From the sequence record ON062054.1: 49,175 bases of DNA; one strand, 5' to 3'. Positions 3,661 through 4,826 of the stretch are shown here, one piece after another. This DNA comes from Escherichia phage P818. Position numbers and translations under genes: made by a program. Each line of letters begins with the position of its first letter. Positions within the stretch are counted from its first letter, which is position 1. The notes beneath the pieces are model-generated. The model worked only from the letters and a program-made list of their open reading frames with translations. It made no database searches and was not told where the DNA came from.

Positions 3661-3891
3661 ATGACTAACTTAATCAAACTTTCAATCATCGCCGCAGCAG
3701 CAATCATGATGGTAGGTTGTTCTTCAGGTCCTCGTCCTGATGGGTGGTGTGCAACGTCCTCAAACGGCGTGTGCGTAGCTAAATGGAAAGGTGGCGTAGT
3801 TGTTGCGGCTGGTGAAATTGACATTCGCTACGATGGCATTAAAGGCTCCAGCGGCTCTGTTCGTGATTATGGTTCTAAGGAGTGGAATTAA
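3661..3891 (+). CDS. cor: Cor-like superinfection-exclusion lipoprotein
   Basis: 76 aa; signal peptide plus lipobox (MMVGC); size and position next to the tail fiber module match Cor of T1/phi80-like phages. Confidence 0.6.
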
Positions 3892-4826
3892 TGGCTCAAG
3901 GTATTTATATAGACCTCAATGACGGAAGAAAGCCAATGACAATAACCGCAGGGATGCGTGCTTTAAACTTTGCTGGTAACTTCAATGTCTCCAGTGGTGG
4001 ATTTAGAAAAAATTTTTCAATTCAGGGTAATGAAGGAGCGTCAAGGTTCCTTATCCCTAACAATGGCGCATACTCATTCGAACTTGATAGGGGAGTTGAG
4101 GTTTACTACATAAATGGATTCTCATCAACAGCATCAAGCGGAACAATATCGATTGGCTATGAGAATGGATATTCTGACCGTATAACTCAATTTTCTGGTA
4201 CTGTTGTTGAGGTACTAAGAGCATCGACGGGACAGGGTATTTATGTTGCTGATAGCACTGATTTTACTTCGATAACAACCACTGACAGGTTGCTGGTGTG
4301 CAAGTTTGCCCAGAGGATATCTTTCACCAATACATACACCCTTCCAATTTATGGGATACCATTTGGAAAGTGGAATAACTCAGGTGTATCAGTTGAATAC
4401 AATGGTAGTAACCAGCTGATATGTACAAACATAAATACTGAAGATACTGGTGATACACCAGGAAGTGTCACTATGGATTTGATTATCTTCCAGATGGTCG
4501 CTCCAACCCCTGGTCCTGGACTGAACATATTTAACTCAAATGGTGTTTGCACATTATCAACCGTTACGAGGCCATTGGTTGTTTCTGGATTCATAAACCT
4601 GTCAGGAAACAATCAATACATTGGAGAATCCTACTTCCCGATACTAAGATGTGGATTTAACACCAGGGCCATTCCTGCATACAAGGAGTTAAGGAACAAG
4701 GGAATTGTGATGAGCAATGGTTATGTTCGCTCAGGAACTGGTTCAAGGATTGTCAGATACGAGATAGGAAACAGACCTGACGTAACAATATCAACACCAC
4801 TTCCTTACCTTCCAGATATGTATTAA
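3892..4826 (+). CDS. Hypothetical beta-rich protein co-transcribed with cor
   Basis: 311 aa; ATG right after the cor stop (TAATG) with GGAG RBS; Gly/Ser/Thr/Asn-rich. Confidence 0.6.

Follow-up and report, generated by a model that had tools for sequence, protein, structure and literature searches.

A gene cassette of Escherichia phage P818 for host recognition and self-exclusion, with LptD as its probable terminal receptor

A small lipoprotein gene and the gene coupled to it, at positions 3661-4826 (+) of the Escherichia phage P818 genome (record ON062054.1), raise the question of which receptor they serve and what the second gene encodes. We analyzed the whole stretch of 49,175 nucleotides, hereafter the window. 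It is the genome of a T1-like siphophage of the Drexlerviridae, Nouzillyvirus-like, and its nearest relatives are the Nouzillyvirus phages vB_EcoM-p111 (p111), XT34, BUCT-XGG-1, ESCO41 and CJ19. A preliminary description had called the 76-residue lipoprotein Cor-like, expected it to block the phage receptor, and left its 311-residue partner as a Gly/Ser/Thr/Asn-rich protein of unknown function. Our analyses indicate that the two genes and the 3′-terminal part of the converging gene for the J-like tail-tip protein very probably constitute a host-recognition and self-exclusion cassette whose terminal receptor is LptD, of the lipopolysaccharide (LPS) translocon.

The product of the downstream gene (3891-4826, +) was assigned by profile and structure-database searches to the terminal receptor-binding proteins (RBPs) of the tail tip, in the LptD-specific family DUF6453 (PF20051; E = 5.8e-119; score 397 bits, cutoff 25). 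Over residues 1-311 it matches chain C of 9RPT (E = 1.3e-39), i.e., the RBP of phage Oekolampad (Dhillonvirus, Bas18) on an open state of LptDE (PMC12685063); the chain is labelled "tail fiber protein" in 9RPT, 9RPW and 9RQI. The P818 protein is 98.4% identical to bas02_0024 of JeanPiccard (Bas02), from which it differs at 5 of 311 residues, and 99% identical to its p111 counterpart (308/311 residues); identity is 79.7% to Rtp44 of phage Rtp, 41% to the CJ19 allele and 31% to the Oekolampad RBP. JeanPiccard and AugustePiccard have been assigned to LptD by sequencing of resistant mutants (PMC8594841). Membership in the LptD RBP family has been defined by more than 30% identity, with more than 99% coverage, to RBPs assigned experimentally to LptD (10.64898/2026.04.02.716166), and the P818 protein falls within it, as its alignments span residues 1-311 at 98.4% identity with Bas02 and 31% with Oekolampad. 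In small siphophages the terminal receptor can be predicted from the locus downstream of gpJ, and for Rtp the explicit prediction was LptD (PMC8594841); genome-wide screens confirm this locus as a receptor predictor (2026 preprint, 10.64898/2026.04.02.716166).

Further properties of the RBP were read from its gene and its homologues. Gly (11.3%), Ser (9.3%), Thr (9.0%) and Asn (8.7%) make up 38.3% of its residues, and it has neither a signal peptide nor a transmembrane segment (maximum Kyte-Doolittle value for a 19-mer, 1.28). Comparison of the gene with that of JeanPiccard revealed 77 synonymous and 5 non-synonymous codon differences, arguing for strong purifying selection and thus for a true coding gene rather than a chance open reading frame (ORF). 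The automated ORF list begins the 311-residue ORF at GTG 3882; homologues align from ATG 3891. The 63 substitutions relative to Rtp44 cluster in segments 31-60, 121-180 and 211-240. Homology to the Oekolampad RBP runs from end to end, with the N-terminal MxxGIxIDxNDGR and C-terminal PxPxLxxPxMY ends conserved, although the latter protein is 10 residues longer and rearranged in the region of about 38-75. The DUF6453 family is also represented in phages of Klebsiella, Salmonella and Cronobacter and in records labelled as Campylobacter and Pseudomonas phages. A single-sequence AlphaFold2 (AF2) model of the 311-residue protein was unusable, with a predicted local distance difference test (pLDDT) score of 29.

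The upstream gene (3661-3891, +) encodes a superinfection-exclusion lipoprotein of the Rtp45 family. Its signal peptide (residues 1-19) has an n-region with one Lys, a hydrophobic core and an M-V-G-C lipobox that satisfies a rule of the PROSITE PS51257 type; the lipidated residue is Cys20 (codon 3718-3720), and the mature protein begins C20SSG. As the residue at position +2 is Ser, sorting to the outer membrane is expected from the Asp+2 rule. The protein matches PF24052 (Phage_lipoprotein) over residues 1-75 of 76 (E = 1.5e-36; score 124.7 bits, cutoff 27) and phrog_4281 (E = 6.8e-31), the PHROG that is also matched by the superinfection-exclusion protein of Oekolampad. One solved chain in the PDB was matched, namely Rtp45 (9RPS chain D, E = 1.5e-44), in a cryo-electron microscopy structure of Shigella LptDE-LptM with Rtp45 on the periplasmic face (PMC12685063). 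Identity over the full length is 90.8% to Rtp45 and 89.5% to JeanPiccard bas02_0025, and that of the mature part is 98% to p111 and 95% to JeanPiccard, with residues 30-43 identical to the latter. The signal peptide, the lipobox and C30/C38 are the same as in Rtp45. C30 and C38 are invariant in an alignment of seven family sequences, in which C20 is also conserved; in the solved structure of Rtp45, C30 and C38 form a disulphide (PMC12685063). By these relationships the 76-residue lipoprotein would be a receptor-blocking superinfection-exclusion factor that is functionally tied to its downstream partner. Among Drexlerviridae alleles the lipoprotein, at 78-93% identity, is more conserved than the RBP, at 41-99%, a pattern that would fit a conserved periplasmic target for the former and variable extracellular loops for the latter. 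PADLOC returned no defence-system match for any of three proteins.

Analysis of the junction showed how the two genes are joined. The TAA stop codon of the lipoprotein gene (3889-3891) and the ATG of the RBP gene (3891-3893) share one A in a TAATG motif (3889-3893), and the Shine-Dalgarno sequence of the RBP gene, AAGGAG (3877-3882, +), lies inside the conserved C-terminal K-E-W codons of the lipoprotein. A Shine-Dalgarno-like GAGGA (3649-3653, +) was read 7 nt ahead of the ATG of the lipoprotein gene itself. JeanPiccard and Rtp keep the junction AAGGAGTGGAATTAATGG; AugustePiccard and CJ19 each deviate from it once, the former downstream of the ATG and the latter in the region of the stop codon. 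The Oekolampad junction is a related form, GGGAGTGGTAATAATG, with a 2-nt gap between the genes in place of the overlap. Conservation of the junction from Rtp to Oekolampad indicates that the two genes have been translationally coupled since early in the history of the cassette.

The RBP gene stops 28 nt from the end of the convergent gene for the J-like tail-tip (central fibre) protein (4855-8220, −; 1121 residues; Pfam FNIII-A_GpJ, Phage-tail_3 and Phage_Tail_Tip). Between them, a terminator scan detected a GC-rich hairpin of 8 bp (AAAGCCCC-TTTC-GGGGCTTT; 4831-4850, both strands) that resembles a bidirectional intrinsic terminator common to the RBP operon and J. Rtp, Bas01, Bas02 and CJ19 share the arrangement in which lipoprotein gene, TAATG and RBP gene converge on J. 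Oekolampad has the same gene order and locus layout, and its two proteins belong to the Pfam and PHROG families of their P818 counterparts, each at about 31% identity. Rtp44, like the P818 RBP, has 311 residues. Thus, the anatomy given in the preliminary description was borne out, from the lipoprotein gene at 3661 to the TAATG coupling, the Gly/Ser/Thr/Asn-rich composition of the partner and the convergence on the central tail fibre gene. The partner, in place of a protein of unknown function, is an RBP of family DUF6453, 98.4% identical to that of JeanPiccard and homologous to the chain in 9RPT. Family membership, near-identity to characterized proteins and gene anatomy are established for this locus.

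Comparison of the J proteins delimited the unit that is exchanged. The C-terminal 120-135 residues or so of J (about 4855-5262, −), corresponding to the last two bins of the alignment, show 94-98% identity with JeanPiccard and Rtp43, versus 42-83% for the body of the protein against the same two proteins and 42-76% over most of its length against JeanPiccard. The pattern is reversed in J of CJ19, a phage of the same genus with the 41%-identical RBP allele, as its body is 91-100% identical and its C-terminus 76-84%. The C-terminus of J thus co-varies with the RBP allele, arguing that J C-terminus, RBP and lipoprotein are exchanged together; this C-terminal region would be the docking site for the RBP. 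Receptor-specific C-terminal domains of GpJ have been reported (10.64898/2026.04.02.716166), in agreement with the inclusion of the J C-terminus in the mobile unit. Judging from the sequences, the cassette has moved between phage backbones: near-identical cassettes, with an identical junction, are found in p111 and in JeanPiccard, although the latter belongs to another subfamily, and the cassette of Rtp sits on an Rtpvirus (Braunvirinae) backbone as opposed to the Nouzillyvirus-like one of P818. The DNA of p111 is 97.4% identical to the window at 3235-9000, with the same cassette on board.

For P818 itself, we infer binding, exclusion and their timing from the systems characterized in these relatives. 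The RBP, devoid of a signal peptide, would attach to the distal end of the tail-tip protein J during assembly; RBPs of this kind are thought to sit there non-covalently (PMC8594841). It would then plug the extracellular lumen of open, laterally open LptDE, touching extracellular loops (EL) 3-5 and EL11, and this plugging would lead to irreversible adsorption. The Oekolampad RBP contacts EL3-5 and EL11 of the LptD barrel, and the LptD substitutions Y671N or D352Y, or deletions in EL11 or EL4, abolish binding and infection (PMC12685063). JeanPiccard and Oekolampad are blocked by the lptD alleles Δ(Y658-Y678)::H and Δ(L394-V396)::Y. In the infected cell the lipoprotein, translationally coupled to the RBP through the Shine-Dalgarno sequence within its KEW codons, would be exported by Sec, lipidated and sorted by Lol, as its lipobox and Ser at +2 suggest. 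Between LptE and LptM, it would dock near strands beta5-8 on the rim that LptD presents to the periplasm, with its residues 30-35 pairing with LptD 318-323, and its hairpin would be pushed up the barrel lumen so as to shift EL4 by up to about 20 Å. With EL4 displaced, LptD would refuse the RBP, and infected cells and debris would no longer adsorb P818 or other LptD phages.

Several observations weigh against this interpretation. The exclusion mechanism was deduced from the structure of Rtp45 over-expressed with Shigella LptDE; formation of the RBP-LptDE complex in vitro was slow and partial (PMC12685063). Seven residues of the lipoprotein differ from Rtp45 (at 33-35, 44, 49, 53 and 55), and three of these, at 33-35 (SSN here, QAS in Rtp45), belong to the strand paired with LptD 318-323. 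SSN is also found at 33-35 in the LptD-dependent JeanPiccard, and the pairing is a beta-sheet interaction, which we take to be largely mediated by the backbone. No sigma-70 consensus was found in 3580-3660 and no promoter was found for the pair, which may therefore be co-transcribed with the gene just upstream (2911-3579, +). Bas01 needs NupG as a second receptor through a GpJ domain (10.64898/2026.04.02.716166), and a co-receptor contribution of J is therefore possible in P818 as well. This dual requirement of Bas01 for NupG and LptD also speaks for the alternative that the cassette, homologous as it is to the LptD module, has an allele that switched terminal receptor or that depends on a further receptor by way of the C-terminal domain of J. 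DUF6453 alleles do diverge to about 31% identity and are exchanged horizontally, and their hosts extend over the Klebsiella, Salmonella and Cronobacter phages and the Campylobacter- and Pseudomonas-labelled records mentioned above. The P818 allele, however, differs at just 5 of 311 residues from the RBP of JeanPiccard, a phage shown by experiment to depend on LptD, and its mature lipoprotein (95%) and J C-terminus (94-98% to JeanPiccard/Rtp43) are similarly close, so that we regard a change or addition of receptor as very improbable.

A still less probable explanation, to which the term Cor-like in the preliminary description points, is that the lipoprotein is of the Cor/Llp type and acts from the periplasm by "reverse allostery" to inactivate FhuA or a different TonB-dependent transporter, with the 311-residue protein as an uncharacterized accessory. 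The design is indeed shared: T1 Cor and T5 Llp (with the RBP pb5), both directed at FhuA, are small outer-membrane lipoproteins facing the periplasm, encoded beside tail-tip genes and disabling the receptor that the tail-tip RBP uses. RefSeq and PHROG call such neighbours "membrane protein" or "moron", and the Oekolampad orthologue has a weak phrog_1119 match, confined to the signal peptide. The 76-residue lipoprotein of P818, by contrast, gave no phrog_1119 match at E ≤ 0.01, with T1 Cor (3.3e-30) and T5 Llp (1.1e-19) as controls, and the mature parts are unrelated (BLASTP E = 0.8 or no match). On these profile searches with positive controls and the BLASTP comparison of the mature parts, membership in the Cor/Llp family was rejected. 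The disulphide layout also differs, with the local pair C30/C38, 8 residues apart, in P818 versus C25/C73 in Cor and C26/C73 in Llp; the Cys11-Cys58 disulphide of Llp ties together the N- and C-termini of the mature protein (PMC9586334). The lipoprotein gene does not stand beside an RBP locus of the FhuA or BtuB type: genes of the T1-type FhuA locus (homologues of gp32/gp31) are absent from P818, and the partner, rather than pb5 or a product of such genes, is a DUF6453 protein without signal peptide or transmembrane segment whose homologue binds the extracellular face of LptD. The mechanisms differ as well: Llp exerts a long-range allosteric effect on FhuA by way of the plug of this TonB-dependent transporter, unlike the physical block that Rtp45 imposes on LptD by displacing EL4 via the barrel lumen (PMC12685063; PMC13164509 and PMC12685063 cite PDB 8A60 and 8A8C for the FhuA systems). 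The lipoprotein is thus Cor-like in function and not in descent: the kind of function expected for it, receptor blocking, agrees with its place in the Rtp45 family, and its profile families are phrog_4281 and PF24052, not phrog_1119. The receptor that it implies is LptD, not FhuA.

The cassette as such, and its horizontal exchange as a module, are already known; it was predicted in 2021 and solved structurally in 2025, and it is almost identical in deposited phages. What its recognition adds for P818 is that the receptor can be called from the sequence as LptD, an essential and conserved outer-membrane protein, and that the database labels "membrane protein", "moron" and "Cor-like" can be corrected. 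The joint travel of J C-terminus, RBP and lipoprotein is useful for host-range engineering and for resistant production strains.

LptD-type cassettes occur also, rarely, in prophage-like chromosomal regions. DUF6453 matches were found in 3 of 5,426 complete Escherichia coli genomes, and one such region was inspected. In the chromosome of E. coli WCHEC025970, near zntB (L015, 4804-5951), a lipoprotein of the Rtp45 family (MVTIIAVAAILVGC...GSKEWY) is coupled to a DUF6453 gene, and the pair converges on a tail-tip fibre gene.

A scan of the whole window for lipoboxes detected three genuine lipoprotein genes, one more than the two exported lipoproteins counted in the preliminary description. The second of its lipoproteins, placed between methylase and VRR-NUC genes, is real and is encoded on the minus strand (41735-42007, −): an ORF of 90 codons with lipobox MAG-C17, recognized by the lipobox rule, is a conserved gene of the early region and is flanked by Dam (41005-41733; PF05869, E = 4e-59) and VRR-NUC (42087-42515; PF08774). 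The protein is 100% identical in CJ19 and 50EP; among the matches listed, homologues with 33-39% identity are found in Klebsiella (Webervirus), Citrobacter and Salmonella phages and in LL5. Those genomes, which represent three genera (Nouzillyvirus, Tlsvirus and Webervirus), share the order helicase, VRR-NUC, lipoprotein, Dam; T1 has a terminator alone at this place. LL5 is listed as a user of TolC (PMC8594841). As its position is kept across genera whose receptors differ, the second lipoprotein is not cognate to the P818 RBP.

Invariant residues of the second-lipoprotein family include C17, Y24, C26, G27, T57, G60, A62, Y64 and C84. An AF2 model built from 45 sequences has nine strands and is confident over the mature domain, with a mean pLDDT of 84 and values of 89-94 beyond residue 20. 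On this model, the second lipoprotein would be a small beta-barrel anchored to the outer membrane that resembles MliC/PliC in fold only; these proteins, like PhiA, are periplasmic inhibitors of lysozyme or peptidoglycan hydrolases. The order of its cysteines is like that of MliC, for which the sequence we used was confirmed against 2f09. Homology in sequence was tested in four ways, none of them significant, and was rejected, leaving the resemblance at the level of the fold: PF09864 (MliC/PliC) gave no match at E ≤ 10 in any of the 45 family members, a search of the PDB with the family profile gave no match, hhalign of the mature parts of the lipoprotein and MliC yielded a probability of 1%, and with signal peptides included the sole match, at a probability of 78%, was carried by the signal peptide. 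Foldseek with the model returned nothing from the PDB at E < 0.2, and a BFVD search returned the protein's own family only. The inhibitory loops of MliC carry the motifs SxSGAxY and YxxxTKG. These are not conserved in the second lipoprotein, where the family has G-x-A-x-Y, no Trp and no K-G hairpin.

Our best guess is that the second lipoprotein acts in the periplasm as a binding protein or an inhibitor and has a barrel like that of MliC/PliC. The more specific proposal that it founds a small, phage-restricted family of early, outer-membrane-anchored barrels of this kind, which would neutralize an enzyme acting in the periplasm or an envelope component whatever the terminal receptor, is speculative and has a low probability. 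Possible targets would then be the peptidoglycan hydrolase of a superinfecting phage or a lysozyme of the host or environment, i.e., an envelope protection distinct from receptor masking. Somewhat better odds, still on the unlikely side, go to a role as a receptor-masking or heterotypic exclusion lipoprotein, directed not as an MliC-like inhibitor but against an outer-membrane component used by competing phages. Sorting to the outer membrane is predicted from its Ala at +2, and like Cor and Llp it has a lipidated Cys, a Cys at +9 and a third Cys close to the C-terminus. It also matches phrog_1119 weakly over residues 1-44, but this is essentially the signal peptide, and the mature part is without similarity. 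Its position is moreover kept in genera that include both TolC users (LL5) and the LptD-type P818. Phage restriction would suit such a role: a hidden Markov model of the family, searched against 1.84 billion representative proteins, yielded 14 clusters at 50% identity, several of them being repeat-protein matches. If the protein proved to be an inhibitor or a heterotypic exclusion factor, it would represent a new envelope-directed phage function. Literature searches for the function of the Webervirus/Tlsvirus second lipoprotein found nothing.

The repeat-protein matches just mentioned were noted separately. The profile of the second lipoprotein matches giant LapA/Ig-repeat proteins in multiple stretches (P0175, P0180-P0182), in one case a 3231-residue LapA-domain/RTX adhesin in 13 stretches. 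They probably reflect a similarity in composition among T/V-rich beta-repeats, and the family may be distantly related to adhesin repeat domains.

The third lipoprotein (36845-37234, −) has an ordinary role in lysis. It is a unimolecular spanin of the T1 type, with lipobox LSG-C17 and a C-terminal transmembrane segment, and matches the Rz-like spanins of phrog_1804 (E = 4.6e-49). Its C-terminal hydrophobic segment reads IAFGLALILISLLLFSFTIWTFF, and its gene overlaps the end of the endolysin gene immediately upstream (37210-37695; PF00959, GH24).

As to the remainder of the genome, the window starts with SSB, Erf and exonuclease genes. The SSB-like protein (35-487, −) has a long Gln-rich C-terminal tail (QQHSQGEQRQHSQQQQQQPQRQQPQQK) followed by an acidic DDDIPF tip. 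The last ORF (46725-49175) encodes a lateral tail fibre with a Tail_spike_N domain, and its stop codon ends at the final base of the window. As the record ends exactly at this stop, the genome appears to be complete and circularly permuted. Across the window (1-49175), neither tRNA genes nor Rfam families at the gathering threshold were found.

The gene just upstream of the cassette (2911-3579, +) is anti-repressor-like (phrog_8235, E = 4e-65) and has no Pfam match. JeanPiccard and AugustePiccard have a Dcm-like methyltransferase in its place, and the homology between P818 and p111 is interrupted between 2822 and 3235. This break and the differing upstream gene indicate a second variable spot adjoining the cassette. 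The anti-repressor-like gene and the divergent exonuclease gene are separated by an AT-rich non-coding stretch of about 600 bp (2300-2900), which is likely a control region. It contains several weak sigma-70-like sites, an (AAT)n run near 2590-2606 and the palindrome CGGTTACGCGTAACCG at 2716-2731, and its portion at 2375-2727 is about 85% identical to Rtp.

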